From the IMG/VR virus record IMGVR_UViG_3300048762_000095, positions 1 to 42,451 of that record: DNA of 42,451 nt, one strand, 5' to 3'. Position numbers and translations under genes: made by a program. Positions within the stretch are counted from its first letter, which is position 1, and every line of letters begins with the position of its first letter. The notes beneath the pieces are model-generated. The model made no database searches. It had not been told where the DNA came from and was given only the letters and a program-made list of their open reading frames with translations. This document shows positions 9,401 to 42,451 of the stretch, in pieces. Source of the DNA: a virus (taxonomy: Duplodnaviria > Caudoviricetes).

Positions 9401-11383
9401 AATTGTCAGAGTAATTATGACGTTAATTGTTCTTCCGCGTTCGGAAGTTATACTCAAAGTATTAGTGGAACTACTGGTTATTTGCCAGAGGGGGTCGATC
9501 CTATTTTCTTGGAATATATGGGTGGAAGAAGTGGTGGTTTAAATATATTAGAGGAAGGCGGTTATCACTCGAAAGAAATAATTGGAGATCTTTGGAATAA
9601 TTTTAGCTATCAAGCATATGGGATGTTGGGAAACCAAAATTGGGTTGGTGGAAATATACCGTGTAGTAATCCTACTAGATGGCCAGCTAATGATAGTAAA
9701 TTAGTTTTATTAAGTTCAACGCAAAATGAAATGAAAATTTTTACCAGAGCATTATCTTTTAGTCCTTTTGTTTTAAATAAATATCAGTTCCAACCATTTG
9801 GAACGACCCAAACATATCCATATAGTATCATGGGTCATTCATCTTCTTTTGGCTTAACTATGTCTGGAGATTTCGGTAGCGTTGATTTAGCCACTTTAAT
9901 GCCATTAAAAACTTTTACTACAAGTGGATGGTATGAGCCAACTGGTTTAGAGATAGGGCCATTCGATAGAGATATGGAATTAGGAGTATTAGGTGGAAAT
10001 ATGCTATATTCCACAAATGCAGATTTATTTTGTAATGGAAATAGAATTACAGACGTAAGTGGTGTCGGAGGTTACTGTGATGCAAATGCACAATATTATA
10101 ATAGGATGGGATTAAATTCAGGTATTATTCCAGACACATCTTATGGAAGAAATTTAAATTTCACAATATTTGCGGTTGTTGGAAAGGGACAAACTGTTAC
10201 ATTAAATCTTTCTGGAGTTAGTCCTAATAGTCAATTTGGTTTTCAGTATTTAAAAACCAGTGGCACCAGTGGAACAAGTTTAAATAATACCATTTTAACC
10301 ATGCGTCCAAGGAAAATAATTGGAGCTTCAAAATATGACACTGATATTCATTATGGAGAAGAATCGTGGACAAGTCCATTTTCGTTTTTAAATAATGGGC
10401 AGGAGCAACAATATGGTATAGGAATTTCTAAGTTTGAAGATTTGGCGAATAATACTTTAAATATAACGACATACTCTCAATCTGGGAAATTATATCCAGT
10501 TCCAGGTCTTGATTTTACTGGCTTAGCAAAAATAGATACTAATGGTAATTTTATATACCCTACAACGGCCACCGTTGAGAATTATTGGAAAACATATGCA
10601 GCCAAACATAATACGAAAGTAACAGTGTCTGGCTGGAGAGAGGGAAGTCGTATATCCTTCCAATTTACTGATATTTCTGTGCAATACGATAGTATTCCAT
10701 ATCAAACACAAAAAATTATTATTCCGTCGGGGGAATGCGTGATTTCGGGAGAAATGGGGTACTTGCGACAAGCTGATGCGGCGGTTTATTCTGCTGGGGT
10801 CATTTTAGAAGATCATACGACTTATCCAGATAATGAAATAAATACTTTTGCGCCAAGTTTTTGTTCAGATGTTTTGAATAGATTGCCGTGGATTACTGGA
10901 ATATCTGGGGAATATCCTAATCCAATTATGTCTGCTCCAAGCGTAATGATACAGAGAACAAATGTGGGTATTATTAGTGGAGTAGAAATCTATAATAAAT
11001 TAAATAATTTTCCACCTTACGACTATAACAAGTTGAATTGGGCGGCGGTTTCCGATCTCGAATTTAATAATGATGGCGAAACTTTGGAAGCCACATTACC
11101 GAACGATCCTGTGACGTTTAATCAATCGCAAGTATTGTTTAGTGCATCGCAGGGACAACCGCTTGCAAATGGAAAAAATAATCCGATTGTAGATCAAACT
11201 TATGATGTGGTCTACGCGGCTCAAACTTATGATTCAATTGCTACGGACGCACTAGTAAATAGTGGAATATGTCTGACTAATAATTATGGGACACAAAATA
11301 GGTTAACACAGTCTCAGGATTTGTCAGGAGTTATTGCACCTATTGGATCTACAATTTCGCTAATTCAAGCAGGAATAGTTTGA
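6470..11383 (+). CDS. Giant hypothetical protein (1637 aa), likely virion-associated
   Basis: Long ORF rich in S/G/N/Y/T with recurrent SG/TG dipeptides and few charged residues; no catalytic motif recognised. Confidence 0.72.
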   Translation: MISSTSNLFGFSMVSAQSRASSIGLSSSQEKICLAFTVAFGQAESTSKSLYQQIKNANVNSIGGFGIGSPYAIIEKKIYDIFDIAYPSETVVNKQILALSANALIFAYYVYSDMNISDVTDLMGTLLQNICYYVTQNQLFSVSTINGNSHVNTPMTSQIIQSFLTEGYYETIQSLSSSQKSSPINVVNYNWMNTEDIFAKPNLQIMKDIENAYYYISGNLSYKTDSTDVIDCVSIPVTILTSTGQISFSYYLQEPCIEKNSYIGPVSGISFYRVFNDGPYTSGDFNAAVKEAYLQFDKNVLSPTEYGSNSKMLYSFITGSDSGYLPISLSNVFIDANGRYDLNQEYTHVPESYDCSNSYSGTMHIGGNAPIIACERDEHNHCINCMMVNNTGFKFASLELNKDVWQNNFAYIKTNPVSNVNNILKRALNILPYSYISDLDEDAFTTVGDPNTQYLGYPQLTGQNALPNLAFFQDFDSQTFKKSASICMYPSIGTSYNGSDKDSDRQYQISPLNLFSGASATHVPIGKSGYSLIKFVKSIPSSGLVNDEIAQQFFGMGNNFNNKFHTVTVSESNAGFLYSGVYVDNSGIYSNIVNANIPFENATLGSPVNSINFVKGYRSDAGEEYLVKKIYAQDNSGNLIPYYNLLNSDLPNSLQIDENQTQTFTPLPNILEWESSLSHINDSQTVENYLPRFASGAFETIGQKFLYPNAQQVSNTYDSKVNGFPIRINFTLNIREETVREIYAKFIISNNGIISTSPNYVGVIRPNGDLTTDLRNPSPVMNQIFVPNNTYYSRKYDFNNFAMGTSFQYHSPLDNMVDNNWSPFINRNFYQDDKGKLIKEFEQSNSQPSYPDAPVFSTPSGKNSLFATDQNNPFILSNYSSNSTEYIDQGQGIRFTGNGALSHQWFTGTGNNDLKIIYDESPILNGLYHYFEPLQISGYLLYTPPYFDLSSGTGYINDAIKEAFKVMISGNNNAGPINCQSNYDVNCSSAFGSYTQSISGTTGYLPEGVDPIFLEYMGGRSGGLNILEEGGYHSKEIIGDLWNNFSYQAYGMLGNQNWVGGNIPCSNPTRWPANDSKLVLLSSTQNEMKIFTRALSFSPFVLNKYQFQPFGTTQTYPYSIMGHSSSFGLTMSGDFGSVDLATLMPLKTFTTSGWYEPTGLEIGPFDRDMELGVLGGNMLYSTNADLFCNGNRITDVSGVGGYCDANAQYYNRMGLNSGIIPDTSYGRNLNFTIFAVVGKGQTVTLNLSGVSPNSQFGFQYLKTSGTSGTSLNNTILTMRPRKIIGASKYDTDIHYGEESWTSPFSFLNNGQEQQYGIGISKFEDLANNTLNITTYSQSGKLYPVPGLDFTGLAKIDTNGNFIYPTTATVENYWKTYAAKHNTKVTVSGWREGSRISFQFTDISVQYDSIPYQTQKIIIPSGECVISGEMGYLRQADAAVYSAGVILEDHTTYPDNEINTFAPSFCSDVLNRLPWITGISGEYPNPIMSAPSVMIQRTNVGIISGVEIYNKLNNFPPYDYNKLNWAAVSDLEFNNDGETLEATLPNDPVTFNQSQVLFSASQGQPLANGKNNPIVDQTYDVVYAAQTYDSIATDALVNSGICLTNNYGTQNRLTQSQDLSGVIAPIGSTISLIQAGIV

Positions 11384-11388
11384 AGGTC

Positions 11389-14300
11389 TCATTCATTATC
11401 CTCTTTCCACTCACTGAATTTTAAATATGCTTTGTTCTGCTGGCAAGAAATAGAGTCAGCGAATATGGTATCATCACTAATTTTAGTCCCCTTGCATATT
11501 ACAACGTCATTTGCCATTGGCAATACACCATTGATACTCTTACACTGTTCCATTTTATCACTAAATATCATAACTTTAATGGTTTTTGTTTCATCTCCAA
11601 TAATGAACTTAGCATATTGGCTCCCCTTTTTAGACTTACCTAAAACTGGCGACTCCTCGATTTTTCCAACAAAACAAACGTGAGTTTTATCTAATTCGGT
11701 TGAAACCTCACTAATTTGTTGCAAGGAACTACAAAAAGGTTTGAAAATATTTATTAAGGAATTACTAAAAGAGTAGCCGATTAATTTGGTTTCCAGCGCC
11801 CAATTAACAAAATCAGCGCATTCCTTATTTTGCTCGTAAATTTGCTTGTATTTACTCATCTTGGTTTTAATTGTCTCAAAACGAGAGAGTTTGATTAAAG
11901 GGCAACTTTTCTCATCTTTTAATTCTTTAACCATTGCATTAACTAATACTGGAAGTTTAAACTCAAATTTTTCCCCATAGTTCATGGCAAGTTTCTTCTC
12001 CTTTTCTGTGAGGGTGTTCCACAATTGTCCCTCATAGCTCAATAATACGCGGTTTTTACCAAACTCTTCAAGTGCCCCCGCATGAACCAAAGATGTAAGT
12101 TGTCCAATGTTTAAACCAGACTCTTTCGAGCATTGAAACATTTGAAATTTATTAGCGTGTTTTCGTTGGAAATTATTTAATTTTTCCATTGTTTTGTCGC
12201 TGATTCCCTTAATTGAGGAAAGTCCGAATCTAATATTATTATTTTCAATCGAGAAATCCATTTCAGAAAGAGAAAGACTAGGGGGTAAAAGTTTAATTCC
12301 GAAATGAATCATTTCTTTGTGAATTTTTGAGATTTCACCGATGGGGTCTTGTTCATGCTTCGTCATTTTTAATAATGAAAGATAAAATTCTTGTGGATAA
12401 CGGAACTTGAGGAAGACGGAAATTGCCGAGAGCGCGGCGTACGAAAATGAATGCGATTTGTTGAATTGGTATCCTGAAGAGTCATTCAATATTTTCCAAA
12501 AGACTTCGCCAATTTTAGGATCAAGATTATTTTCTATAATTTTTTTATTAATTTTAGCTTCCCACAATTTAATTTCCTCAACCTTCTTCTTCCCAATGCA
12601 ATTGTGTATAACTATTCCATTTGCAATAATAAATGGGGCATTTTCGTTTTCCATCGTAAAATCAAATACTTCGATTTCTCTTGTATCTCTTTTTTGATTC
12701 GAGAATTTATTATAATAAAAATTAGTATTATTAGAATAATCTATCCAAAATTTATTTTTTGTTCCCTCACAAAGTTTCTGAAAAGAATTTCTATTGAGAG
12801 GTTTATTATAAACCCTTCCAGATGCTAGAAAACCATTTTCTTTATTAGATGTTGCAAAGGGATATTGATCTACAACTTTTTTAATGATCGTTTGGGGAAT
12901 TAGATCGAAAGAAAAATTAACAACCCTTTCTTTAACTAATAGGTTATCTAGTTGTTGTTTTTTTATAGACGGCCATAAAACAGTCAGTTCTTTATTTAGT
13001 TTTACTAGTTCACTATATTCTTTTATTAAAAGATGATAATAAAAAGATTTGTATTTTTTATTCCATTTTCCTCTTAGTTTTGAATAAATCCCAAATCTTG
13101 TTAAAAGCAATTGAACTTGAGAACAAAACTTCTTGTTTTTAGAAGAAAATTCAAACCATCTTGCCTCTTCCGTATTAGATTGAGAAATTCCTCCCTCGCA
13201 AGCTAGAATAAAAGATAAAAATTTTCTAGTGGTTTCTTTGGTCATACCCATCATTTTTTCTGGCAAACACTTTGAGGCAGAAAGACCATATGGTAAAATT
13301 TTATTTATTTCAACTGTTTGTTTTTTCTTGAGCGCAACAACATTTCCGCATTGACGATATGTTGGGAATAGACCAAAATAATTTTTAAAAGACACGCAGA
13401 ATATATCCATCATTTCCTTGTCAAATGCTGTAAAAGTAGTAGCATTGTAACCAGAAAAATACCCTTCTGTAACCAATCCCCCAATAACTATAGCTAAATC
13501 TGAATTTATAAAATCAATTCCATCATAGTCTACCTTTTGTGGAGAAAGAAAATAATCATTTTTTCGTAATCTCATTCTTGCTTTCCAACCCGAATCGGTT
13601 AAAAATTGATGATATAATGACGCACGAACTTCCATACCGTTATCAGCTTCTACAAATCTGGTTTGTTTTGTCCCATTTGACCAAATATTAGATATTTTTT
13701 GCCACGACTGATTTCCAATTTCATCCATAGTTAAAAAAACATCATCTTTATATCCGTCTTTCAATAATGAATTTATCGAAATATATCCCCTAGTTTTTGA
13801 AATAAACAACGTGTCACCAGTAATACATCTTCTAATTTGTTCTGCCTCATCAAGAGTAAAACCTACTTTATTTGCCATTTGCATCGCCTCTTCTTGGTAT
13901 AAACATAGACCACCAGTTTCTTTTAAAATATTATCAAAAAATGGATGAATAGATTGAAATGCTCCGCCATTTGTAAATTCAGCATATCTATCAATAAACT
14001 GACTAGCGCCAGGTCTTGCCAACGCCAGAATCGCACTTAATTCATTAAAATTATGCGGTTTAACTTTTTGGGTTGTCTTAAATCCCAAGTCTGCTTCAAT
14101 TTGAAATAATCCGTGTGGATTTTGTAAATTTTGTAGATTGGTATAAATAGAAGCATCGCTGACATCAATGTCTTCTACTTTAATTTTTAACATTTTACAT
14201 ACATCATCTATAACAGATACACCGCGTAATCCCAATACATCAACTTTTAGAGAAAACAATGATACTTGATTCATGTCATATGAAGTCACTATATCTTTAT

Positions 14301-15183
14301 CGGAAGAAAATTCTACGGGACAGTTTTCATCTAGGTTATAATAAGAAATCATAACTCCAGACGCATGAACACTTTTATTTTTAATTAAATCTTTTAGTTT
14401 AATAGCGATTGAATAAACTTCTTTATTTTCGTCGCACCACTTCTTAAATTCATCTACTTTTTCGTAAGCCTTATCTAAATCTTCAATCTGCCCGTGTATT
14501 TTAGGAATCATCCCCGTAACTTGGGTCATGTCTTCCTCTGGAATCATTCCGAATATCTTGCCCACTTCTTTGATAACTAATTTAGTAGATAGTGTGTTGA
14601 AAGTGAGAATTTTAGCGGTTTTACCTTGATATTTATCGTTAATGTATTTTAATAGTTCTTTACGACGATAGTAGCATATATCAAGATCAACGTCACACAT
14701 AAGAGAACCATCGAGATAAGTAATACCATCAACAATTGATTTTTTAGCGCGAATCTTTGAAATAAACCTCTCAAAATAAAGTCCGTATTTTAATGGATCA
14801 ATTTTAGTCACCCCGATTAAATACAAAACTAAACTTCCAGCAGCACTACCACGCCCAATACCAGTAGGAATATTTTTCTCTTTAGCGAAATTAATAATAT
14901 CCCAAATAATAAGCACATAATCTACGAATCCCAACTCATCAAAGAGTCCTAATTCATACTTAATTCTTTCCCCATATTCTTGATATAATTCGGATTTTTT
15001 GTCTAAATTCAGAGTTTTAAATCCAATCTTACATAATTCTCTCAAAAAGTCTTTGTTAGAGGTAGATAAATCTAAATTTAATTCTTTCTTATATTTATCC
15101 TCTACCTTAAACACAGGAAGGCGAACACCTAAAATGGGTATTTTAAGAGATTCAAATTGGTCTGTAAAATTTTGTAGTGTCAT
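11389..15183 (-). CDS. dnaE: DNA polymerase III alpha catalytic subunit (lacks PHP domain), with intein
   Basis: GRGSAAGSLV, YFERF, DVDLD, HASGV, KVDVLGL, LYQE, YQFNKSHS, IRFGLSSIKG motifs and a C-terminal OB fold. Confidence 0.95.
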   Translation of the reverse strand: MTLQNFTDQFESLKIPILGVRLPVFKVEDKYKKELNLDLSTSNKDFLRELCKIGFKTLNLDKKSELYQEYGERIKYELGLFDELGFVDYVLIIWDIINFAKEKNIPTGIGRGSAAGSLVLYLIGVTKIDPLKYGLYFERFISKIRAKKSIVDGITYLDGSLMCDVDLDICYYRRKELLKYINDKYQGKTAKILTFNTLSTKLVIKEVGKIFGMIPEEDMTQVTGMIPKIHGQIEDLDKAYEKVDEFKKWCDENKEVYSIAIKLKDLIKNKSVHASGVMISYYNLDENCPVEFSSDKDIVTSYDMNQVSLFSLKVDVLGLRGVSVIDDVCKMLKIKVEDIDVSDASIYTNLQNLQNPHGLFQIEADLGFKTTQKVKPHNFNELSAILALARPGASQFIDRYAEFTNGGAFQSIHPFFDNILKETGGLCLYQEEAMQMANKVGFTLDEAEQIRRCITGDTLFISKTRGYISINSLLKDGYKDDVFLTMDEIGNQSWQKISNIWSNGTKQTRFVEADNGMEVRASLYHQFLTDSGWKARMRLRKNDYFLSPQKVDYDGIDFINSDLAIVIGGLVTEGYFSGYNATTFTAFDKEMMDIFCVSFKNYFGLFPTYRQCGNVVALKKKQTVEINKILPYGLSASKCLPEKMMGMTKETTRKFLSFILACEGGISQSNTEEARWFEFSSKNKKFCSQVQLLLTRFGIYSKLRGKWNKKYKSFYYHLLIKEYSELVKLNKELTVLWPSIKKQQLDNLLVKERVVNFSFDLIPQTIIKKVVDQYPFATSNKENGFLASGRVYNKPLNRNSFQKLCEGTKNKFWIDYSNNTNFYYNKFSNQKRDTREIEVFDFTMENENAPFIIANGIVIHNCIGKKKVEEIKLWEAKINKKIIENNLDPKIGEVFWKILNDSSGYQFNKSHSFSYAALSAISVFLKFRYPQEFYLSLLKMTKHEQDPIGEISKIHKEMIHFGIKLLPPSLSLSEMDFSIENNNIRFGLSSIKGISDKTMEKLNNFQRKHANKFQMFQCSKESGLNIGQLTSLVHAGALEEFGKNRVLLSYEGQLWNTLTEKEKKLAMNYGEKFEFKLPVLVNAMVKELKDEKSCPLIKLSRFETIKTKMSKYKQIYEQNKECADFVNWALETKLIGYSFSNSLINIFKPFCSSLQQISEVSTELDKTHVCFVGKIEESPVLGKSKKGSQYAKFIIGDETKTIKVMIFSDKMEQCKSINGVLPMANDVVICKGTKISDDTIFADSISCQQNKAYLKFSEWKEDNE
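12601..13827 (-). mobile_element. Intein (409 aa) with LAGLIDADG homing endonuclease in DnaE
   Basis: Junctions EQIRR|CITGDT ... IVIHN|CIGKKK; block B SLYHQF; endonuclease blocks GGLVTEG and FILACEGG. Confidence 0.93.
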
Positions 15184-17118: not shown

Positions 17119-17283
17119 TTAAATTATTTTCTCTTTTTGACACATGAATTCACCAGTTTCCTTATGGACAAATCCTCCATTTGCACCAAGACGAGGAACG
17201 TTAAAAATCATTTCTTTCCCACAATCACAACAAGTTCCAATTGGGTGTTTGGTGTTATATTTATATTGCTTCTTTTTTTTCAT
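17119..17283 (-). CDS. Small Cys/His protein (54 aa), possible zinc finger
   Basis: MKKKKQYKYNTKHPIGTCCDCGKEMIFNVPRLGANGGFVHKETGEFMCQKEKII*; ATGA overlap with the PHP stop. Confidence 0.6.
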   Translation of the reverse strand: MKKKKQYKYNTKHPIGTCCDCGKEMIFNVPRLGANGGFVHKETGEFMCQKEKII

Positions 17284-18041
17284 ATCGTTATTAAAAAATT
17301 GAATGTGTCAGAACACAGGTGATTTATATTGGGCGATTCGCACGTTGCCTTTTTAGAAAACCCCCTTGAACTAATAGTGCGGAAGGTCACATATGCCTTA
17401 TAGTCATCAGGAGAATAATAATAAATACTTTGTGCGTTCAAAGTCTCGAATCCATTTTTTTCGCAAAAGTTTAAAACCTTATTTTTAATCAAGTAGTCAA
17501 ATGGAAGGGAATTGTCTTCCAATAAAAAGACTGGTTTTGTAAAAGAAAAATTTGGAACATGGTTTCTTCCTTCAAGTGTATTAAGATGTAGAAAAGAATC
17601 ATAAAAAGGGACACAAAGTAGAAGGTTTTTTGTCCATAATCTCTTTAGATTTGTAAAATCAATTCTTGACTCATAATAGAAGCCATCTGTCGAGGCGAAG
17701 GATGAAATTTTTATCAAATCCTTATGTCCATCTGGATTTTTGCAGAAAATAATATACTTACTTTGCTTTAAGTGGCTATCGTCGTTTTTTACTGTAACGT
17801 CATCGGTTACAGACAGGCGAAGACCAAAAAGAAGTTTAATATTATTATCTTTTGCGTTCTTGCTTGCCTCCAAGAGGCCCGAAATACTATCCTCAATCAG
17901 ACAAATGGTATTTAATTTGTGAAATTTCGCAATAGAAAAGATAGATAATGGGTAAATATCTAAGTTGTCCTTTGGTTTATCAAGTGTTAAAATTGATTTT
18001 CCGAGGCTATAATGACTTTTAAAGCAGGGCAAAATTGACAT
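17280..18041 (-). CDS. Stand-alone PHP domain of DnaE (N-terminal part of split polymerase)
   Basis: KSHYSLGKSIL, IEDSISG, IKLLFG, KNPDGHKDLIKISS..GFYYESRID match the DnaE PHP domain. Confidence 0.88.
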   Translation of the reverse strand: MSILPCFKSHYSLGKSILTLDKPKDNLDIYPLSIFSIAKFHKLNTICLIEDSISGLLEASKNAKDNNIKLLFGLRLSVTDDVTVKNDDSHLKQSKYIIFCKNPDGHKDLIKISSFASTDGFYYESRIDFTNLKRLWTKNLLLCVPFYDSFLHLNTLEGRNHVPNFSFTKPVFLLEDNSLPFDYLIKNKVLNFCEKNGFETLNAQSIYYYSPDDYKAYVTFRTISSRGFSKKATCESPNINHLCSDTFNFLITI

Positions 18042-18062
18042 AAGATAAGAATACTATAAATT

Positions 18063-18455
18063 TTACTGTTTGTCAATTACTAATTCTGGATTGTCGAAAA
18101 TATTACCAATAATCTTTATATCCTTATAGTATGGGAATTCCCATAAATCATTCTCATTTTTTCCATAACAAATAAATCCATAACCATTATGATCTTGGTT
18201 TTCTTTAACTTTTAAAGTTGCTTGCATAGTTTTATTATCAAAATATAAAACATCTCCTGCATAGATTTCCTTGCCATCTTTGTCATTTAATCCTGTGAAT
18301 TGTTGAACAATATATTCATCTCCACCAGAACCATTTTGGAGATTATGAAACTGGCCATTTAAAGACATAATATAATGTCCTTGGTATCCCACATCTGGGA
18401 GAATATACACTTTTGCTAATTTATCCCACACACGAAACTTAATTGCTCTTAACAT
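18063..18455 (-). CDS. YopX family protein
   Basis: IKFRVWD, QQFTGLNDKDGKEIYAGD, IIGNIFDNPEL. Confidence 0.9.
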   Translation of the reverse strand: MLRAIKFRVWDKLAKVYILPDVGYQGHYIMSLNGQFHNLQNGSGGDEYIVQQFTGLNDKDGKEIYAGDVLYFDNKTMQATLKVKENQDHNGYGFICYGKNENDLWEFPYYKDIKIIGNIFDNPELVIDKQ

Positions 18456-18461
18456 AAGAGA

Positions 18462-18490
18462 ATATTAGGACAACTTTAACAAAATGTCAA
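18462..18490 (-). promoter_or_regulatory. sigma70-type promoter TTGACA-17-TAATAT, 6 nt upstream of ATG 18455
   Basis: -35 at 18485-18490, -10 at 18462-18467. Confidence 0.8.
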
Positions 18491-21136: not shown

Positions 21137-22617
21137 TATTCTAAGATAATATCTCCTTTTTTCTCTTTATCAACGGCTTTAAAAGAAGAATTCTGGCGAA
21201 TAATACAGTCTTTCAACGAACCCCGCTCCTCTACAGAAAAATTACTAACATTAAAATTAAGAAAATTAGGTAAATATCTAGTTTTTCCATCGGGGAACGT
21301 CCGCTTAATAAAATCAATATGTCCCTGTGCATCACGCCCTTGGAAACGCGTAGCAATTTCTATTAATTTATGACTTCCACTTTCTAATGTATCTAACAAC
21401 ATTTCATCTTCTGTTCTTCTACGGAAGATGCCTAGGTAACTCGTGAACCATTGTAGGCGATCTGAAGTTGCGACAGCCGACCCATCATCAGTAATATCAC
21501 TTGATTGTTTGCCTCTATTTTCTCCCGACCTATTCAATTGTATTGCTGTCAAAAAAGGAAAATCTAATTCAACAGAAAGAGATCTAAATTTATCTACTTT
21601 TTCGCCAATAGCATGATGCTCTTGGTGAAATCCAGATAGTTTTTCGCCAGTTAGTTTTAGATAATCATAAACAACAATGCATTTTCCACCTCTTCCTACA
21701 TTAGATAAATGCCATCTTCTAATAATTGAGCATACTTCATCAACTGGTTTATTACCTACATAATAATGAAAAACTTTATTTTTGAAAAATTTAAGTGTTG
21801 TTCTTACCTTGTAAACATATTCTTCGTTCTTCCTCCAGTTTCCTGTCTCAAGAAACCAAGTAGGAACACCACTAACACTTGACGCCGTTCTGAATCTCTG
21901 TTCCTCAGAACTCATCTCTGTGTCTAAAAAAAGTATTGGTATATTATGTATCTCACCCATTTTAGAAGCCCAATAAGAAAGCATTGTTGTTTTACCTTGT
22001 TTAGGGCGTGAGGCTATAGCGTATATATTTCCGCCACGTAAACCACCATACAAACGATTATATTCCTTAAATGGAGTAATTAGTCCAATATCATCAATTG
22101 GATTATTACCTCTCTCCTCAATCATTTCTAATAAACCATCATAAAGATTTTCTGGTTTAGAAGAATTATCTAGTTGATTTATATTTTCGCCATACAAGGC
22201 ATCAACTTCAAGAATAGTTTTGGTCAAGTCTTGATTAGCAGATTTATTAACATGATTTTCTATTTTATGGCAAGTTTCTTCTAAGTCTCTAAGAACTTTT
22301 AATTTTATTAATTCCTTACTGGCTTCTATTGTCGCCTCTAGTGTGATAGGGGAAAAGCAAATTGACTCGACATACGAAAAAATGTCCAGATCTTCAGCAA
22401 AGCTAATTCCTAAATTTTTTATAGATTGGGCGATTAAAACCTTATCTAACTGTTTATTGTCAAGAAGAAGTGACTTTATACAAGAAAAAATAACAGAATG
22501 AACTTTACTGGTAAAACAGTTTTCACTTAAAAATCGTTCTACTTCTGGGAAAACACTAGGATTATTAATTATTCCATTGAGTGTATGACGTTCAAGCTGT
22601 AAAGAAACTAAAGACAT
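21136..22617 (-). CDS. dnaB: Replicative DNA helicase
   Basis: Walker A ASRPKQGKT, DTEMS, VYDYL, QLNR; N-terminal DnaB-like domain. Confidence 0.93.
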   Translation of the reverse strand: MSLVSLQLERHTLNGIINNPSVFPEVERFLSENCFTSKVHSVIFSCIKSLLLDNKQLDKVLIAQSIKNLGISFAEDLDIFSYVESICFSPITLEATIEASKELIKLKVLRDLEETCHKIENHVNKSANQDLTKTILEVDALYGENINQLDNSSKPENLYDGLLEMIEERGNNPIDDIGLITPFKEYNRLYGGLRGGNIYAIASRPKQGKTTMLSYWASKMGEIHNIPILFLDTEMSSEEQRFRTASSVSGVPTWFLETGNWRKNEEYVYKVRTTLKFFKNKVFHYYVGNKPVDEVCSIIRRWHLSNVGRGGKCIVVYDYLKLTGEKLSGFHQEHHAIGEKVDKFRSLSVELDFPFLTAIQLNRSGENRGKQSSDITDDGSAVATSDRLQWFTSYLGIFRRRTEDEMLLDTLESGSHKLIEIATRFQGRDAQGHIDFIKRTFPDGKTRYLPNFLNFNVSNFSVEERGSLKDCIIRQNSSFKAVDKEKKGDIILE

Positions 22618-22622
22618 ACCAT

Positions 22623-22651
22623 ATACTATATGGATTTTAGATAAAAGTCAA
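22623..22651 (-). promoter_or_regulatory. sigma70-type promoter TTGACT-17-TAGTAT, 5 nt upstream of the dnaB ATG
   Basis: -35 at 22646-22651, -10 at 22623-22628. Confidence 0.75.
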
Positions 22652-23392: not shown

Positions 23393-25582
23393 TTATCCAA
23401 TCGTATCTTTTAACTTATTTACAATCCACTTAGTAATTTCTGGATTTTGTTCAAAATAATCAGAGAATTGTCCGATACCTTGATGTTTAACCTTCAAGTC
23501 GATCTTATCCTCGGTTGCCATACTTTTAATAACGTCAGAAAATTCAATCCAAGCACCACTCTGCTTAATTAAACTATTCATAAAGCACACATCAAAGATT
23601 TCTTTTTCTGTCCATACGCAATTACCAGTCTTACCTTTTTTAATAGGGACTTCAACGGTCAAACCAGTGTCATCTGTAGCGGATTTCTTAATATCAACCG
23701 TGGCAATAACTCCAAGAATTTTATTCTTGATAGGATCGGGTTTTTTGTCGTTTGGATCTTCAAGAATAAGACTGCTACGAGAACGTTGTCTATAATAAAA
23801 ACCATAAGAAGCTAAATGATTAAGAGCATGAGTATTATTACCATCCATCATATGTGGAGCATCAGGAGAATATTGATCTAATTTAAAAACTGCTGCATAC
23901 TGCGTAATCATAATTAAAAACGCATTATATCCTTGAATTTCTTGTCCAAGTTGACGGAACATTTCTTTAGTGAGCCAATTAACGCCAGCGGGTCTCTTAT
24001 TTTCACCAATCTTTTTGTCGTCGGATTCGGACAGTTTCAACATATCAACGCTATCAATAATAATACATAGATGCTCACCTTGCTCGTGCATGGAAACAAG
24101 TAGAGACTTTAGTGTATTTGCAATAGTATTAAAATCATTAGTTTGGAAGATGAAGACAGAACCATAGTCCCAAGTGTCAGCGGACATTGTATATTTTAAA
24201 CCAGTTCTTTCTTGGATTTCTGAACCAAATTTAGCTTCAGCGTTTACATAAATCGTCTTACTTTTGGGAAAGGTAGCCATGTAGTTTTGGGCAAATAATA
24301 AAGACTGAGAACTATTATGTGTTAAATTGAATCCGTCAGTGATATACAAACTATCTTCATGTTGAACTTTAATACACACGCATTCTTCATAACCATAATC
24401 CTCAATAGAAATAATATATTTTTCGGTTTCGGTTTCTCGATTTTTATAAATATTAACTTTTCTACTTAATTTAAATGGACAAAAGTCTGTAAAACTAATA
24501 TGAACACGATAATTTCTATGTCCATCCTTTTTTACTCCCTTATATATAAAAGTAGGAATTCTTGACGAAATCGTGGCCCGCCCGCCAAGACTTCTAACGA
24601 GAAAAACCACATCATTTGCTAACTGTTCTGAAGATGAAGAGTATTCAATTATACCAGTATTTTTACGGGATAATCCCCCATCAGTATCTAATAGCCCCTG
24701 CAACAAACTTTTCCTATTTTCTATGCTATTAAAAAGATAGTTTTTGGGAACAAATTTATCATAAGAAAGTTTGCCATAAAGTCCCAGATTTTTAAGAATA
24801 TTTACTATGTTCATTCCATATAAATCATATTCATATTTTGTCGTTCTTTTCTTATTCACCTTTACATTTTCTGGTAGAATATGAGTAATTCTTTCTATTG
24901 TTTCTTCGTCTGCCGTCGTAAAGCCAATTCTATATTTATCTTTACGAAAACATCCGTCTCCCAATATCAAACCCAATAAATAACTATCCAAGGGTAAATC
25001 TTTTTGTTGTTTTTTAAAAACAACTGGTTTGACGTATGGAATAGAATGATTATATTTATAATAACTATTTTTATCCCCTATTAGGAGGGTCTTCTTTATT
25101 TGATTTGTAGTCTTGACGCATCCGCGCTTTTCGTTGTTTCTATCATTAGAGTCTTTAGTAAACCATAAATGTTCATCACAACAAAATACATTGGTTTTAT
25201 CGGAAAAGGTCACTTTATTAACTTTTAATTTACCTTGTGGAATAATATATAATATTTGTCTTGATTGACCGTCTGACCCGACAACTAAATCTCCTTGTTT
25301 GAGGGAACCTATTGGACTCCAACCAGTTGGGGTTAATACATTCGACCATAATGGTTGAGCCTTACCTACTTCTTGTGGCCCACCAATACGAATAGTTGTT
25401 CCAGATTTAACTTTCACAAACATATCTAACTTTAGAGAACCTGATGGGATAATTTTTTGTGGTTCTTGGTCGAAGTTGAAATGGGTTTCTTTATACCCCT
25501 TCAAAAGGGCGCCCAAAAGGTTTTTTGAGACTTCTTCATTTCCCGATACTTCTTTAATTGCTTCTTGTTTAATTTTTGCCAT
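23393..25582 (-). CDS. recA: RecA/UvsX-like recombinase with intein
   Basis: PSGSLKLD, P-loop GPQEVGK|S interrupted by the intein, YVNAE, IIDSV, C-terminal GAW..F..QG. Confidence 0.88.
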   Translation of the reverse strand: MAKIKQEAIKEVSGNEEVSKNLLGALLKGYKETHFNFDQEPQKIIPSGSLKLDMFVKVKSGTTIRIGGPQEVGKAQPLWSNVLTPTGWSPIGSLKQGDLVVGSDGQSRQILYIIPQGKLKVNKVTFSDKTNVFCCDEHLWFTKDSNDRNNEKRGCVKTTNQIKKTLLIGDKNSYYKYNHSIPYVKPVVFKKQQKDLPLDSYLLGLILGDGCFRKDKYRIGFTTADEETIERITHILPENVKVNKKRTTKYEYDLYGMNIVNILKNLGLYGKLSYDKFVPKNYLFNSIENRKSLLQGLLDTDGGLSRKNTGIIEYSSSSEQLANDVVFLVRSLGGRATISSRIPTFIYKGVKKDGHRNYRVHISFTDFCPFKLSRKVNIYKNRETETEKYIISIEDYGYEECVCIKVQHEDSLYITDGFNLTHNSSQSLLFAQNYMATFPKSKTIYVNAEAKFGSEIQERTGLKYTMSADTWDYGSVFIFQTNDFNTIANTLKSLLVSMHEQGEHLCIIIDSVDMLKLSESDDKKIGENKRPAGVNWLTKEMFRQLGQEIQGYNAFLIMITQYAAVFKLDQYSPDAPHMMDGNNTHALNHLASYGFYYRQRSRSSLILEDPNDKKPDPIKNKILGVIATVDIKKSATDDTGLTVEVPIKKGKTGNCVWTEKEIFDVCFMNSLIKQSGAWIEFSDVIKSMATEDKIDLKVKHQGIGQFSDYFEQNPEITKWIVNKLKDTIG
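24314..25360 (-). mobile_element. Ala-starting (class 3-type) intein (349 aa) with LAGLIDADG endonuclease in the RecA P-loop
   Basis: Junctions GK|AQPL ... LTHN|SSQ; HLW (block B Trp), CVCIKV (block F Cys), THN (block G Thr); LLGLILGDG and LQGLLDTDG. Confidence 0.9.
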
Positions 25583-25588
25583 AATAGT

Positions 25589-25960
25589 TTATTTGTATAG
25601 ATTTAAAAATTCTTTAAGTGTTTGAGGTTTTCTCTCTATTATAACGTCTTCGCCCACTTTTTCTTGTTCTAATTGGATGTTTTTTATTTGGGGGGATAAA
25701 TCAGTAGTGTTTAACTTATAATCCATAATATAAGCGTTTAAGTAGGAATAACCCTCCTTACAGGAGAGCCATAAAAGGGTATTAATTTTCTTATTATCTG
25801 GAAGGGGAACCCAAAGAAGAAACCCTAAGGAATATTTTTCAATGAGGTTTTTTGCAAATTTAGACTCTTTTCCATAGAAGGAAGGATGCGGCTTGCCGTT
25901 TACTGCGACAAACCGATAAACAACCTGTAAATTATCACTAATTTTACGAACCTTTACCAT
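25589..25960 (-). CDS. Hypothetical protein
   Basis: 123-aa ORF in the operon upstream of recA. Confidence 0.7.
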   Translation of the reverse strand: MVKVRKISDNLQVVYRFVAVNGKPHPSFYGKESKFAKNLIEKYSLGFLLWVPLPDNKKINTLLWLSCKEGYSYLNAYIMDYKLNTTDLSPQIKNIQLEQEKVGEDVIIERKPQTLKEFLNLYK

Positions 25961-25974
25961 TTAACAATGGTAAC

Positions 25975-27036
25975 TTAACTTTGTGATTTTGTCAACTCAA
26001 AAACATCGGGTCGAATAGGTGTTTGTCCAGATTCGAGTTGGTAGTCAAAACGACACATTAATTCAATATGTTTTTTAAATGAAATGCGTTCTGGAATCCA
26101 ACCCAATTCTTTTTGAGCTTTCGTAGAATCAGCAATAAGTCTTACTACTTCGTTAGGGCGTTTTAACGAGTCGTCAAATTTAACATACTTTTTCCAATCA
26201 AGGTTAAAATGTCCAAAGGCTTCTTGCACGAATTCTTCCCCCCAATGAGTAACGCCATTACCAACAACATAATTATCTGGTTTTTCCTTATTTAACATTT
26301 TCCACATGGCCTCGACTGCAAAATCACTATAATGCTCATCTCTAGCCCATTCTAAATGCCCTAATTTTAATTCAGTAGCTTTACCCAAGGCAATTTGGGC
26401 AGCGGTATTAGTAATCTTTCTTGATACGAAGTCTTTTGAGCGATAAGTATTAGAATGATTAAAAAGGATACCATAACAACAAAACATACCCGAATCTAAT
26501 GAATCACGATAAAAATTTATCCATCTTGCCCCTAATGCTTTCCCTATAGCATATGGAGAACGAGGATTCCATATACATTCTTCATTAAAAGTTCCACTAT
26601 CAATACCACCAACTAATTCGCTTGTAGCGGCAAAGTAAGTGCGGGTTTTAGGGCTTAAATTTTTTAAACATTCCAGAAAATAGTAAACGGATTGACCGTT
26701 TGTTTGAATGGCTAATTCTTTATTTCTAAATGATTCTCCAACATGAGAATTCGCGGCTAATAAATAAAGTTCATCAATTCTACTGTGACGTTTAATTACT
26801 GATTTAATACATTCATTAACGCTATTTTGACATGAAATATCGCATATTTCTAAATATAGTTCTGCATTTGGATTTTGTTCTAAATCAGATTTAAAAAGAG
26901 ATTTTATTTTAGATTCATCCCAAAAAGAATTACGCCGATAAGTTAGAATAACCTTATAGTTTTTGCTTAAAAGAAGATGGCAAAGTGTTTTTGCATCCAT
27001 TCCATTTGAACCAGTAATTAAAGCGATATTATTCAT
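25975..27036 (-). CDS. gmd: GDP-mannose 4,6-dehydratase-like SDR enzyme (divergent)
   Basis: LITGSNGMD, LAANSHVGESF, ATSEL, PRSPYAIGK, GILFNH, FVSRKI, LKLG.L...RD, RPNEV. Confidence 0.85.
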   Translation of the reverse strand: MNNIALITGSNGMDAKTLCHLLLSKNYKVILTYRRNSFWDESKIKSLFKSDLEQNPNAELYLEICDISCQNSVNECIKSVIKRHSRIDELYLLAANSHVGESFRNKELAIQTNGQSVYYFLECLKNLSPKTRTYFAATSELVGGIDSGTFNEECIWNPRSPYAIGKALGARWINFYRDSLDSGMFCCYGILFNHSNTYRSKDFVSRKITNTAAQIALGKATELKLGHLEWARDEHYSDFAVEAMWKMLNKEKPDNYVVGNGVTHWGEEFVQEAFGHFNLDWKKYVKFDDSLKRPNEVVRLIADSTKAQKELGWIPERISFKKHIELMCRFDYQLESGQTPIRPDVFELTKSQS

Positions 27037-35595: not shown

Positions 35596-35925
35596 TTAGA
35601 AAAGTTCGGAACCATCATCCGAGGCTTGTGCAACGGGTGCAGTAGGATTTGCGACAGGAGCTACGGTTGGCTTGGCGGGTTTATTTCCATTCTTTTGTTC
35701 GCTAATATAGAAGTTAAAATCTGGTTGATTGTCGGCCTTTTTTTGGGAGTTCGAGTAACCCACAACTGCGATTTGTTGTCCAGCCTTCACGTCACTCTTA
35801 AAAACCAAAGTTCCACTCAGGTATTTCTTTCCAGAAGTCGCCGCTACGCGAGTCCACAACGCACCAATCTCGCGTTCTTTCCAATCATTTTGCTTGGATG
35901 TATTTGTATTATTTGTATTTGTCAT
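35596..35925 (-). CDS. DUF736-like putative ssDNA-binding protein
   Basis: EIGALW...GKKYLSG...N..K...QPDF, followed by a flexible Pro/Ala linker and acidic-aromatic tail DDGSELF. Confidence 0.65.
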   Translation of the reverse strand: MTNTNNTNTSKQNDWKEREIGALWTRVAATSGKKYLSGTLVFKSDVKAGQQIAVVGYSNSQKKADNQPDFNFYISEQKNGNKPAKPTVAPVANPTAPVAQASDDGSELF

Positions 35926-35934
35926 AGTTTAAAT

Positions 35935-35963
35935 ATTATATAGTTAGTTTTGTCGTTTGTCAA
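35935..35963 (-). promoter_or_regulatory. Consensus sigma70 promoter TTGACA-17-TATAAT
   Basis: -35 at 35958-35963, -10 at 35935-35940, 9 nt before ATG 35925. Confidence 0.85.
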
Positions 35964-39071: not shown

Positions 39072-41246
39072 ATGATAGTAAAAAAGACTAACGGAGAATT
39101 TGAGGATTACGACATTTTAAAGATTAAAAGAACGATAGAGTTTGCATATACATCGGTGAATGAAAAGCCAGAATTGGGAGTTATAAATAATATAATCTCC
39201 AATCTTTTTATTTACGAAAATATTGAAACTAAAGAAATACGCAAGCAAATAGAGGAAATGTTGATGTCGATCAATAAAAAGGTTGCAAAATCATATATTA
39301 GTTTGTATAGTAAAATTGCCGAGGGAAAGCGACAACTTGACAAAAAATCTAATTTTATTTACAATTACATAAAATCTTCTAATGCGGCAACTGGTTCTTC
39401 GTTTGATTCCAATGCCAACGTAAACAATAAAAACGTTGTTACAATGGGGCAGGAATTATACAAAGATAATAACATTAAACAAAATAGATGGATGTTACAT
39501 GATAAAATAAAATCTTTATTCTCACACAAATTAGCCGATAATTACATTTCTGATTTAGAGTCTCACCTTTTATATAAACATGACGAAACCGCTATTCCAG
39601 GAATTCCTTATTGTGTCTCTATTACAATGTATCCATTTTTAATGAATGGATTAAAGGGGTTGGGCGGTATATCTACTGCACCGACCGACTTAAAATCATT
39701 TTGTGGAGAATTCATTAATCTTGTTTATTCTATCTCTTCTCAATTTGCTGGCGCAGTTGCAACACCAGAATTTCTAATGTATATGGACTACTTTATTAGA
39801 AAAGACTATGGAGACAACTATTTATCAAAACTAAATACAGTTTTTGATAACAGCAAAAAACAAAGAACATTAGAAAAAATAATTGAGAACAGTTTTCAAC
39901 AAATTGTTCATTCTATGAATATGCCAGCGGGAAACCGTGGTTATCAATCAGTTTTCTGGAATATTGGCTATTTTGACTCAAATTATTTTAAAGGTATTTT
40001 TGGTGACTTTATCTTTCCAGATGGAAGTAAACCATCATGGGAGACTACTTCATGGTTGCAAATGAAATTTATGAAGTGGTTTAACAAAGAAAGAAATAAA
40101 TATGTATTAACTTTCCCTGTCGAAACCATGGCATTATTGAGCGACAAACATGATATTTTAGACAAAGAATATGCCGATTTTGCATCGGAAATGTGGGGAG
40201 AAGGACATTCGTTTTTTTGTTATATTTCTGATTCTCCAGATTCTTTAAGTTCTTGTTGCAGGTTACGAAGTTCATTGAAAGATACAGAAGACAAGGAACA
40301 CAACCACACAACTCATCAATTTTCAATGGGGACAGCCTCGGTCGCTACTGGATCAAAATCAGTAATGACTATTAATTTAAATCAACTAGTCCAAGATTCA
40401 ATACTCGGCTCTATTAAAACCTCTAAATTTGAAGGAAATATCAGGACATATTATACAAACAATAGAGATTTGTGTAACAAATCTATACGAGAAAGCCTTT
40501 CGTGTGTAGTTGATCGCGTCCAAAAATACCAAATTGCTTTTAACGATATTATTAAGGATTTTTTTGGGGCAAAGATGTTAGATGTTTATAGCGCTGGATT
40601 TATTAATCTAAAACAACAATATTTGACTATTGGAGTTAATGGTTTAACTGATGCCGCTGAGTTTTTGGGTATTGATGTCTCTGTAAATGATGAATATGAA
40701 TTTTTTGTCAACAATATTCTTGAGACAATAAATATTTGCAATAAAAAAGCCTATACAAAAGAGACAATGTTCAATACGGAATTTGTCCCAGGAGAAAATT
40801 TGTCTGCCAAAAACTATATTTGGAATAAAAAGGCAAATTATTTTGTTTCCGATAAGCACGATATGTATAGCTCTTACTTTTTTAATCCAGAGGACAAAAA
40901 AATAAGCGTCTTAGACAAGATGAAACTACATGGAGAAAAATATGTTAAATATCTGGACGGAGGATCTGCTTGTCACCTTAATTTAAATGAGCATTTGTCT
41001 CAAGAACAATACCGTAAGATGTTAAAGGTTGCGGTGGACTTTGGAACAAATTATTTTACTTTTAATATTAAGAATACCGTTTGTAATAATTGTGGATTTA
41101 TTAGCAAACACACATTAGAAATTTGTCCTAAATGTAAAAGTAAAGATTTAGATTATATGACTCGAATTATTGGATATTTAAAAAGAGTGTCGAGTTTTAG
41201 CGAAGTCCGTCAAAAGGAAGAATCGGTACGTGCATATAATGATTAA
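39072..41246 (+). CDS. nrdD: Anaerobic (class III) ribonucleoside-triphosphate reductase with ATP cone
   Basis: N-terminal ATP cone, YKHD..PYC, SSCCRL, PGEN, CNNC..CPKC, glycyl-radical motif TRIIGY. Confidence 0.95.
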   Translation: MIVKKTNGEFEDYDILKIKRTIEFAYTSVNEKPELGVINNIISNLFIYENIETKEIRKQIEEMLMSINKKVAKSYISLYSKIAEGKRQLDKKSNFIYNYIKSSNAATGSSFDSNANVNNKNVVTMGQELYKDNNIKQNRWMLHDKIKSLFSHKLADNYISDLESHLLYKHDETAIPGIPYCVSITMYPFLMNGLKGLGGISTAPTDLKSFCGEFINLVYSISSQFAGAVATPEFLMYMDYFIRKDYGDNYLSKLNTVFDNSKKQRTLEKIIENSFQQIVHSMNMPAGNRGYQSVFWNIGYFDSNYFKGIFGDFIFPDGSKPSWETTSWLQMKFMKWFNKERNKYVLTFPVETMALLSDKHDILDKEYADFASEMWGEGHSFFCYISDSPDSLSSCCRLRSSLKDTEDKEHNHTTHQFSMGTASVATGSKSVMTINLNQLVQDSILGSIKTSKFEGNIRTYYTNNRDLCNKSIRESLSCVVDRVQKYQIAFNDIIKDFFGAKMLDVYSAGFINLKQQYLTIGVNGLTDAAEFLGIDVSVNDEYEFFVNNILETINICNKKAYTKETMFNTEFVPGENLSAKNYIWNKKANYFVSDKHDMYSSYFFNPEDKKISVLDKMKLHGEKYVKYLDGGSACHLNLNEHLSQEQYRKMLKVAVDFGTNYFTFNIKNTVCNNCGFISKHTLEICPKCKSKDLDYMTRIIGYLKRVSSFSEVRQKEESVRAYND

Positions 41247-41697
41247 ATATTGTAATAGTAGTATTGTCTTTGGTGAGATTCCAGATGAAATTTCATTGTG
41301 TCTATTTATAAGCAATTGCCAAAACAATTGCCAAGGATGTCATAGTTCATTTCTTCAAAAAGATATTGGAGATATATTGGATAATAATGTTCTTGATGAA
41401 TTAATAAAGAAAAATAAAGGAATATCTTGTGTTCTTTTTATGGGCGAAGGGAATAACGTTAATAATTTGATTGGTTTGGCAAAATATGTAAAAGAAAGGT
41501 ATTTATTAAAAGTTGCATTGTATAGTGGAAGAGATACCGTAGAAGAATACTTTTATAGTTTTTGGGATTATCTTAAAATAGGGCATTATGATAAGTCTTT
41601 CGGCCCATTGAACTGTAGTTCAACTAATCAAAAAATGTTCCAAATAACCTATAAAAACATTACAGATATTACTAAAAGATTCTTGACTTCGCCCTAA
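41239..41697 (+). CDS. nrdG: NrdD activating radical-SAM enzyme
   Basis: EIPDEISL, CQNNCQGCH (CxxxCxxC), GEG, YSG, K.G.Y, TNQ; start re-assigned to ATG 41239. Confidence 0.92.
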   Translation: MIKYCNSSIVFGEIPDEISLCLFISNCQNNCQGCHSSFLQKDIGDILDNNVLDELIKKNKGISCVLFMGEGNNVNNLIGLAKYVKERYLLKVALYSGRDTVEEYFYSFWDYLKIGHYDKSFGPLNCSSTNQKMFQITYKNITDITKRFLTSP

Positions 41698-41711
41698 AAA
41701 AGATGTAATCT
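41683..41711 (+). promoter_or_regulatory. sigma70-type promoter TTGACT-17-TAATCT, 6 nt upstream of ATG 41718
   Basis: -35 at 41683-41688, -10 at 41706-41711. Confidence 0.7.
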
Positions 41712-41717
41712 CTTCCT

Positions 41718-41819
41718 ATGAATCCCTCCGAAATCACACTCGCCAACCTGACGCACACAGTCGGGGTTGGCTCCAGCGTCTTGTTAGGCATCACGGGCGT
41801 AGGCACAAATTTAGTGTAA
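41718..41819 (+). CDS. 33-aa peptide that reads through an attC half-site
   Basis: MNPSEITLANLTHTVGVGSSVLLGITGVGTNLV*, directly after the promoter. Confidence 0.4.
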   Translation: MNPSEITLANLTHTVGVGSSVLLGITGVGTNLV

Positions 41820-41828
41820 TAAAAACCA

Positions 41829-42008
41829 ATGAACGATAATATATTAAATCTCAAAAACTACAAAGAAACGCTTATCAATAATGACGAATTCCTTCTTCAT
41901 CATGTCACGTCTGAAAGTGATGAATCATATATTGAAGAATGTAACTTTATAAAAAAGATACCTACTCAAGAACCAGACGCTTCTCTGCCATTGCCGTCAA
42001 CGCGTTAA
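41829..42008 (+). CDS. Small acidic hypothetical protein (59 aa)
   Basis: MNDNILNLKNY...; preceded by AGTGTAA; overlaps the 3' end of the minus-strand ORF. Confidence 0.35.
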   Translation: MNDNILNLKNYKETLINNDEFLLHHVTSESDESYIEECNFIKKIPTQEPDASLPLPSTR

Positions 42009-42201
42009 TGATTTCGGTCTTTACCGCCCAAAACATAGACACTCTCTGTGAATCAGAAAGCGGAGATTCAAAATGCAGGGCGTCTTTATTGGCGAGGACA
42101 ATATTCAAATGAGCAATCTTATCTTGTCCAAACTCGAACTTTACATGGCGAACATCTGCCACTGAAAATTCTTTGTCTTCGATTTTGATTATGTATTTCA
42201 T
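41962..42201 (-). CDS. Cassette-borne hypothetical protein (79 aa)
   Basis: MKYIIKIEDKEF...LVLE; ATG lies just inside the GTTAGGCATCA box. Confidence 0.6.
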   Translation of the reverse strand: MKYIIKIEDKEFSVADVRHVKFEFGQDKIAHLNIVLANKDALHFESPLSDSQRVSMFWAVKTEIINALTAMAEKRLVLE

Positions 42202-42328
42202 AAATGGTGTGATGTAATGATGCCTAACGAAAAAAGCTGAGCCACCGCGCACCTAAATCTATGCAAACCCAAATCTCTTGCGAACCATTGGAGCCATATA
42301 CTAAACGCCGATAAGAAGGAATCTGAAA

Positions 42329-42451
42329 GTCAACAACATCTACCCTAAAGGGATAGATGCTTGTAAGCTACCGAAGCCTACGATTGGCGAGTTGACTTTC
42401 GCCTGCCATGCATAATAATTACTTATTGAGCATGGGAGTTTGGAACGTAGA
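42329..42451 (-). mobile_element. tnpB: Probable right end of an IS200/IS605 element: TnpB C-terminal tail plus right-end hairpin (partial)
   Basis: Open minus-strand frame ...RSKLPCSISNYYAWQAKVNSPIVGFGSLQASIPLG* ending at 42340; hairpin catcta-ccc-taaa-ggg-a-tagatg; terminal gttgac. Confidence 0.55.

Follow-up and report, generated by a model that had tools for sequence, protein, structure and literature searches.

A gene cassette between two attC half-sites, next to a predicted phage promoter and the end of a TnpB insertion sequence in a phage contig

We analysed a stretch of phage DNA of 42,451 nt (hereafter the window), which has a GC content of 32% and represents an incomplete phage genome ending 123 nt into an insertion sequence (IS). 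Near this end, behind nrdG, a predicted promoter is followed by a single gene cassette lying between parts of two attC sites. The features of the locus are the following:

41239-41697, plus strand: nrdG (anaerobic ribonucleotide reductase activase), assigned by a PHROG match and homologues; its last 15 nt contain the -35 box of the promoter
41683-41711, plus strand: predicted phage promoter, TTGACT-17-TAATCT, with an ATG 6 nt past the -10 box (leaderless type)
41716-41720, plus strand: CTATG pentamer, the likely fusion point of promoter and attC loop and also an IS target (ATGAA from 41718)
41716-41789, minus strand: left attC half with R'' (41789-41783), a 5-nt spacer, an 8-nt L'' carrying the extra base (41777-41770) and part of the loop, without L'-R'
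41718-41819, plus strand: predicted 33-aa leader frame read through the left half-site, with GSSVLLG encoded by 41769-41789 and the stop 9 nt ahead of the 59-aa ORF
41790-42221, no strand assigned: cassette interior, 432 nt, 36% GC, the ends of which extend the R-box complementarity to 11 bp
41829-42008, plus strand: 59-aa ORF, antisense to the attC polarity and sense to the phage promoter, overlapping the 79-aa ORF by 47 nt
41962-42201, minus strand: 79-aa ORF in the canonical cassette orientation, with a predicted small PH-like fold
42222-42290, minus strand: right attC half with L' (42242-42236), a 7-nt spacer, R' (42228-42222) and part of the loop, without R''-L''
42261-42314, plus strand: frame of 17 codons that begins with the ATG in the right half's loop, read from the sequence
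42329-42451, minus strand: IS200/IS605 (TnpB) element, right end only, containing the final 36 codons of tnpB (42340-42450) and truncated where the contig stops

A scan of the 44 ORFs of the window against PHROGs revealed a DnaE-type polymerase, the primase DnaG, DnaB, a sigma factor, homing endonucleases and nrdDG. In view of the DnaE, DnaG, DnaB, sigma factor and nrdDG content, a crAss-like identity was dropped. No structural genes were recognised within the window and no integrase was found among these ORFs, the latter as an earlier note on this DNA had stated. Since three IMG/VR contigs carry a 100% identical DnaB, the window likely comes from a large phage; all three contigs stop short of the cassette locus. 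Close relatives spanning the locus were found neither in viral contigs, searched via nrdG, a 26-mer of the IS end and the sequence that follows 42328 in run X6 (see below), nor in metagenome contigs searched via the promoter pattern. The insert and the 1637-aa protein of the window had no match among named phages, and attC sites of the window's family were absent from 80 loci around nrdD genes at 50-70% identity. Rfam gave no match in the window at the gathering threshold. At least half of the sampled words of the window were found in 12 of 20 listed runs, nine from peat and three from freshwater (the latter from one study), and none of the listed RNA datasets contained its sequence; the best-matching run may be the sample of origin.

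Several other traits of the window were noted. The N-terminal domain of DnaE is encoded by a separate gene (the two genes lie at 11389-15183 and 17280-18041, minus strand), the larger gene containing an intein and a LAGLIDADG domain, and LAGLIDADG/intein-type domains also occur at 23393-25582. Two very large plus-strand ORFs, 1790-6442 (1550 aa) and 6470-11383 (1637 aa), belong to no PHROG or Pfam family, and PHROG family 98 is represented by three paralogues (119-457, 460-996 and 18063-18455, minus strand).

Both attC sites of the window are halves, R''-L'' on the left and L'-R' on the right. The complementary R''/R' cores (RYYYAAC / GTTRRRY) flanking the cassette, which lie in a perfect 11-nt inverted repeat (41783-41793 / 42218-42228, 11/11 complementary), thus belong to two different sites. 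The boxes, the spacers, the 11-bp R complement and the extra base of L'' are all located where the earlier note had placed them, as are the 79-aa ORF and the 33-aa peptide with its box-encoded GSSVLLG. The same note had described the geometry of an integrated cassette, of which the attC-family boxes and the mobile cassette are real, but the right site, lacking R''-L'', is also only a half. The L' to R' spacer is indeed 7 nt long; this length, regarded in the note as a departure from the canonical 6, is the norm in this family, being found in 12 of 15 aligned complete sites. The layout of an 8-nt L'' with the extra base and a 7-nt L' likewise matches these 15 sites.

The L'-R' pattern has one match in the window against 0.01 expected (1 of 100 shuffles), and the R''-L'' pattern, allowing up to two mismatches, one match against 0.33 expected (28 of 100 shuffles). 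Because both patterns were drawn up post hoc, identity to complete sites elsewhere is the stronger evidence, and the left R''-L'' arm is identical over 26 nt to sites in two other loci, L081 and L082. A covariance model was also built from the alignment of the 15 complete sites at related loci. The two halves are its best matches in the window, at 13.8 bits each (E 0.17), and no complete attC site was detected there. Complete sites of the family score 39-122 bits, including ones not used for training (81 bits for L085:120-237 and 56 for L081), and the statement of the note that the left site has no second half holds. Compared with shuffles, neither half of the window folds any better (z -0.25 and +1.68), in contrast to two complete sites (-3.3 and -3.2); folding alone is a weak test, though, since a third complete site, from a phage, gave z of only -0.68.

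In neither half are all four boxes present in one hairpin-forming site, and the window, having no complete site, does not contain the two or more closely spaced attC sites of a CALIN. Neither half resembles, by eye, the attI-like site in L127, and the window has neither intI nor attI. The loop end of the right half is uncertain (about 42271-42290), and its loop likeness, to 42267-42271, was taken from loose contig ends. That a single cassette was circularly permuted, at the 8-nt repeat AATCTCTT or at CTATG, is not favoured, because the right loop remains attC-like beyond CTATG. At position 41726, in the left loop, a C>T variant is fixed in the phage contigs of runs X1 and X6 and occurs in X2 only in a minor contig.

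The segment between the halves contains an ORF bounded by R' and R'' and is present behind different attC sites, and we regard it as a genuine and mobile cassette. The 79-aa protein is identical, compared as protein, in three other contigs (P0001, P0006 and P0007), in which the frame extends back through a standard-type site unlike that of the window, the change falling at the R' crossover; a 96-aa read-through form was found on two contigs. A JGI contig with a three-site array (L083), which may be phage DNA itself, contains a copy of 41805-42254 at 87% identity over 450 nt, in a version of the cassette that is longer by 138 nt. The attC that belongs to the cassette is complete in L083; in the window it breaks off within the loop at about 41716, so that the cassette is not excisable there by a site of its own.

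Relative to L083, the 79-aa frame has a pN/pS of 0.16 and the 59-aa ORF, which is open in L083, one of 0.29 (44 codons); both values were computed on codons outside the overlap, from a single uncorrected pair. Judged by its ratio, the 79-aa protein is under purifying selection and, because values are low in both opposite frames, the cassette seems to carry one gene on each strand. The claim that the cassette is antisense to the usual integron orientation has to be divided accordingly between the two frames: the 79-aa ORF is canonical, and only the 59-aa frame, overlooked in the earlier note, is antisense. The 79-aa protein has three distant homologues; the 59-aa ORF has one (P0003) and belongs to no PHROG or Pfam family. 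A structure model of the 79-aa protein (pLDDT 91) gave PH-like matches with Z of 5-8 (best 8.1, rmsd 2.5, 75 aligned), and in this model a PH-domain likeness at such middling Z assigns no function. Foldseek found no match to this fold at E <= 0.001 in PDB or BFVD, and the leads from the Atlas were all under 0.9.

The promoter ahead of the left half appears to belong to a promoter class of this phage. The pattern TTGAC[AT]-17-TAnnnT-5 to 9-ATG, which was drawn after seeing these sites, has eight matches in the window against 0.14 expected. Six of the seven other matches end at ORF starts and one is internal; those on the minus strand lie at 1567-1604, 18039-18076, 18453-18490, 22615-22651, 25958-25995 and 35923-35963, with the ATG 5-9 nt after the -10 box. 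This class suggests leaderless mRNAs for the replication genes. In the eighth match (41683-41720) the ATG is the loop ATG of the left attC half, and the promoter said in the earlier note to read through this half thus fits the class, although a generic sigma70 scan did not list it. A second TTGACT 'promoter' at 42392 was ruled out, as it lies inside the IS. Among phage-locus sites, 4 of 17 have the pentamer CTATG in the loop, against none of 6 others, and a piece of an array was likely fused to the phage promoter at this pentamer; the position is one that we infer, because none of the alleles seen is free of both the cassette and the IS.

At its right end the window does not continue into further array, as had been supposed. 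Sequence comparison identifies 42329-42451 as an insertion-sequence end. A degenerate pattern retrieved 32 viral loci with this end (L091-L122), of which the closest four (L105, L116, L117 and L120) are 79-80% identical across the whole 42329-42451 stretch. A long ORF on the opposite strand runs into the end in 17 of the 32, and it is TnpB by Pfam in both of those tested (L116 and L105); 28 of 41 residues of the window's last frame are identical to the L116 TnpB tail. An IscB/ISC identity was ruled out because the closest copies code TnpB on the opposite strand, and an RRXRR-motif, IscB-like ORF was found behind the same end only in the more distant L097. A HEARO match from 42329 (16 bits, E 0.76) is far below the gathering score, and the hairpin of the IS end has z of -2.97. 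In contigs of the runs, the end shows multi-copy depth and varied flanks. The left-end motif of the element was matched in 15 of the 32 relatives (9 distinct), each time followed by ATGAA; the regular expression required ATGA, and pairwise alignments stop there independently. The window itself lacks the left end.

Single-strand circles are the form in which elements of the IS200/IS605 family integrate 3' of a short target (Lavatine et al., PMC5027513), and TTCAT is a target motif reported for an IscB element (Meers et al., 10.1101/2023.03.14.532601). The predicted element shares with IS200/IS605 members carrying TnpB, as these sources describe them, a putative right-end hairpin overlapping the tnpB tail and, judged from its relatives, a short target motif at the left end; it differs in that only 123 nt of it are in the window and that TTCAT accompanies TnpB copies here. 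TnpA-like ORFs were seen by eye in L104 and L118, and no tnpA is visible in the window. This TnpB IS family is multi-copy in large phages (five copies were retrieved from one 369-kb genome) and its insertions lie immediately ahead of ATGAA start codons; apparent short IS copies without tnpB are present in L099, L115 and L122. Neither an attC site of the window's family nor a DnaB match was present in five large phage records that carry this IS.

Sites of this attC family also occur in bacterial integrons. In G012, an IntI scoring above the TIGR02249 cut-off (407 bits) is accompanied by a site of the family behind the first cassette, with the genes in the normal orientation, and the dnaN close by is assigned to a cluster bearing the names Limisphaerales, Pedosphaera and Verrucomicrobiota, the last a phylum known to be among those with integrons (Cury et al., 10.1101/030866). 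As the window's attC family sits beside IntI in such a Verrucomicrobiota-like genome, the phage host is probably a member of Verrucomicrobiota. The record L082/G012 is titled Klebsiella (enterobacterial), which conflicts with its dnaN cluster, and is likely mislabelled or mixed; a second genome with the 26-nt identical R''-L'' arm is titled Planctomycetaceae. The window is similar to the Verrucomicrobiota-type chromosomal integrons (L127/G012) in the R boxes, the 26-nt R''-L'' arm and the orientation of the 79-aa ORF. It differs from them in the lack of intI and attI, in the CTATG loops (found in phage loci only) and in the expression from the opposite strand.

The family was further found on six viral loci in five contigs, and two complete phage genomes with such sites have no PF00589 or TIGR02249 match. 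The array of G001 comprises about eight sites and an orphan R''-L'' half at its expression-upstream end, while that of G002 starts with an orphan L'-R'. Integrase-free arrays with loop start codons are located at L085:120-3000 and L087:4397-5104 (G001), L090:303-1711 (G005), L086:4890-5332 (G002) and in L088. The window shares with the small phages G001, G002 and G005 the site family, the loop ATGs, orphan terminal halves and, among its 44 scanned ORFs, the lack of a tyrosine recombinase. With complete sites inside their arrays, those phages differ from the window, whose only cassette seems to bear a gene on each strand. The cassettes of the phage arrays look antisense by AT skew (negative on the top strand in 13 of 13, with one strong PHROG match also antisense), but not by the longest ORF (6 of 12 segments). 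Where phage arrays have their top-strand-upstream end, there are AT-rich boxes (L085 about 2983-3000, minus strand; L089 about 4610-4630; L090 about 60-80) that look attI-like and resemble, by eye, the site beside IntI in L127. A long run of 12-nt tandem repeats in coding frame was seen in G002 (L128:480-1080).

The locus was compared between strains in 4 of the 20 listed runs (X1, X2, X6 and X10), all as short contigs. All four agree in the phage flank to at least 99.9%, and three different alleles were shown among them. The locus is not invariant; invariance is what the earlier note had named as refuting its reading, and on this point the result is in the note's favour. The cassette is present in two runs, with a depth of 11.5 in X1 (phage 13.4) and 8.8 in X2 (phage 12.7), and the junction from promoter to half-site is bridged by single contigs in X1, X2 and X6, the left half being the same in all three. 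In X6 the cassette has no cover: a phage contig matches 40392-41791 and then turns into 21 letters of other sequence, i.e. the switch lies 2 nt beyond R'' and the left half is kept. A second X6 contig leaves 42328 into ATGAAC and represents an IS-free allele (30 letters seen, ATG-starting, no attC). In X10 a contig of 12.5 kb joins 41717 to 42329 without shared letters, and neither 41726 nor the cassette is covered. This joint was at first glance a clean empty site after cassette excision, a reading that was dropped because an ATGAA target meets the IS end there. In X2, a contig of depth 5.7, with 41 letters on its short side, connects 42258 to 41716, and both share the five letters CTATG, a joint that would make a complete 111-nt site of the usual length (the intervening letters are not known). 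A complete 110-nt site sharing both arms was found in X6 at depth 51 and in X10 at depth 9 (phage 18 and 12), with a matching loose end in X1, and it cannot be placed in the phage because its depth does not track that of the phage.

Based on these observations, we suggest, as a reading that we hold to be somewhat more probable than not, that the locus is a captured fragment of an array which is inert to IntI in the allele of the window and which has been reshaped by short-homology recombination at the attC arms and by the TnpB IS, and not by a phage integrase. Since the phage genome is incomplete, an integrase may still be encoded elsewhere in it. Part of a loop-ATG type array, such as those of small Verrucomicrobiota-type phages, would have recombined in at CTATG, whereby the loop start codon would have taken the position of a native gene start. 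The promoter would then drive the 33-aa leader and, by coupling, any plus-strand frame downstream, here the 59-aa ORF. An allele without a complete hairpin presumably cannot be excised by IntI, but its near-identical arms of 25-46 nt would enable homologous or microhomology recombination to remove a cassette or exchange it. The site of IS insertion would be 42328/42329, at an ATGAA start codon; the allele of X10 may stem from an IS-mediated deletion to the ATGAA at 41718 or from insertion of the IS into a cassette-free ancestor; no report of IS-adjacent deletions of this kind was found in the literature searches.

IntI cuts folded attC sites at R' on the bottom strand, and top-strand cutting at R'', which inverts cassettes, is several orders of magnitude weaker (PMC5027507). 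Normal IntI recombination could not replace a cassette beside a truncated left site, yet X6 differs there; the allele of the window has no foldable site, and exchange in the shared arms is favoured as the simplest account of X6. The proposal of the earlier note that IntI shuffles accessory genes at this locus is not supported as stated; the X6 swap, in one run, is at R'', which canonical IntI recombination does not cut. A switch 2 nt beyond R'' with the left half kept fits IntI acting at R'' equally well. It could be imagined, although we think it unlikely, that the locus is a mirror-image integron, in which the plus-strand promoter, the leader and the L''-5 nt-R'' half play the parts of Pc, leader and attI, with a host IntI inserting at G|TT of R'' (41783/41784) in reversed polarity. 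On this equally unlikely premise translation would start at the loop ATG behind the phage's leaderless promoter and pass through L''-R'', the first slot would be swappable between strains, and a cassette with a gene on each strand would be readable in either kind of array. In its favour are the X6 contig, with no cover of the cassette behind the unchanged left half, and the same orphan R''-L'' at the expression-upstream end of the G001 array, and top-strand recombination at R'' does exist. Against it, that recombination is weak, a new activity would be needed, and the half-site is unlike the site resembling attI that lies next to IntI in L127. The swap is documented by 21 letters in a single phage contig plus one other short contig, both from one run, and homologous exchange in the 25-27-nt shared arm yields the same picture.

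In the version given by the earlier note, the locus would be the edge of a live array shuffled normally by a host IntI; the right L'-R' half would then stand, on the minus strand, where attI is expected. This half does occupy the place of attI, the G002 array begins with the same kind of orphan, an identical cassette stands elsewhere behind different upstream sites with the change at the R' crossover, and a complete site is present in X6 and X10. As the window has no such site, X6 has undergone the very replacement that normal recombination could not bring about, and 42328 is followed by the IS or, in the IS-free X6 allele, by a sequence that is not attC, we consider this version quite improbable. 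The 611-nt piece 41718-42328 might instead have been brought, or be moved, by an IS200/IS605 transposase as a single-stranded circle cut at ATGAA: both of its ends are ATGAA positions, X10 joins the IS exactly at 41717, and the family is described as inserting in this manner (PMC5027513). But ATGAA is merely the start codon at both places, X6 retains both ends without the IS at 42328, the literature searched reports no adjacent deletions and the window shows no tnpA, which makes this very improbable. We give very little credence to an assembly chimera, i.e. a phage flank joined via the repeated attC boxes to a cassette of another replicon. It is true that no contig spans either cassette joint with 31 letters on each side (25-26 in X1), that one side of the IS joint is covered by 14 letters and that the same cassette exists in other contigs. 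Against this, in three runs the promoter and the start of the half-site lie together on phage contigs, the X1 cassette contig carries the rarer L''-R'' variant without differences in a 30-nt overlap with the phage contig, the depth of the cassette is near that of the phage in X1 and X2, and the read-through form of 96 aa is found on two contigs.

Phage CALINs with attC sites active with IntI1 have been published by Qi et al. (2023, PMC9892861), who propose off-target homologous or illegitimate recombination for the capture of attC arrays by phages. The locus reported here resembles theirs in having attC-family sites and a cassette in phage DNA without an integrase among the ORFs scanned, with the same capture routes proposed. 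It differs in that their CALINs need at least two predicted attC sites and the window has no complete one; half-sites at both ends, the fusion of a loop ATG to a promoter and strain-level swaps are not described in the text consulted. Theirs was the sole directly relevant paper found in the literature searches (which did not cover the supplement listing other phage CALINs), and none was found on antisense or half-site phage arrays. What the present case adds is the state of one cassette between two half-sites, the promoter fusion and the IS hotspot.

The captured fragment, as we read it, would mean that the cassettes of a Verrucomicrobiota-type attC family serve as a pool for a large phage, and this is a hint to the phage's host as well. 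It would also indicate a route by which a cassette may be wired in, with the start codon of an attC loop landing at the start position of a phage promoter. As ATGAA start codons are targets of the TnpB IS, two mobile systems would be tied to one hotspot. Should the half-site, 74 nt of DNA, not be a substrate of IntI, the locus would be a decaying capture of modest interest; if it proves to be one, this would explain how antisense phage arrays are loaded.
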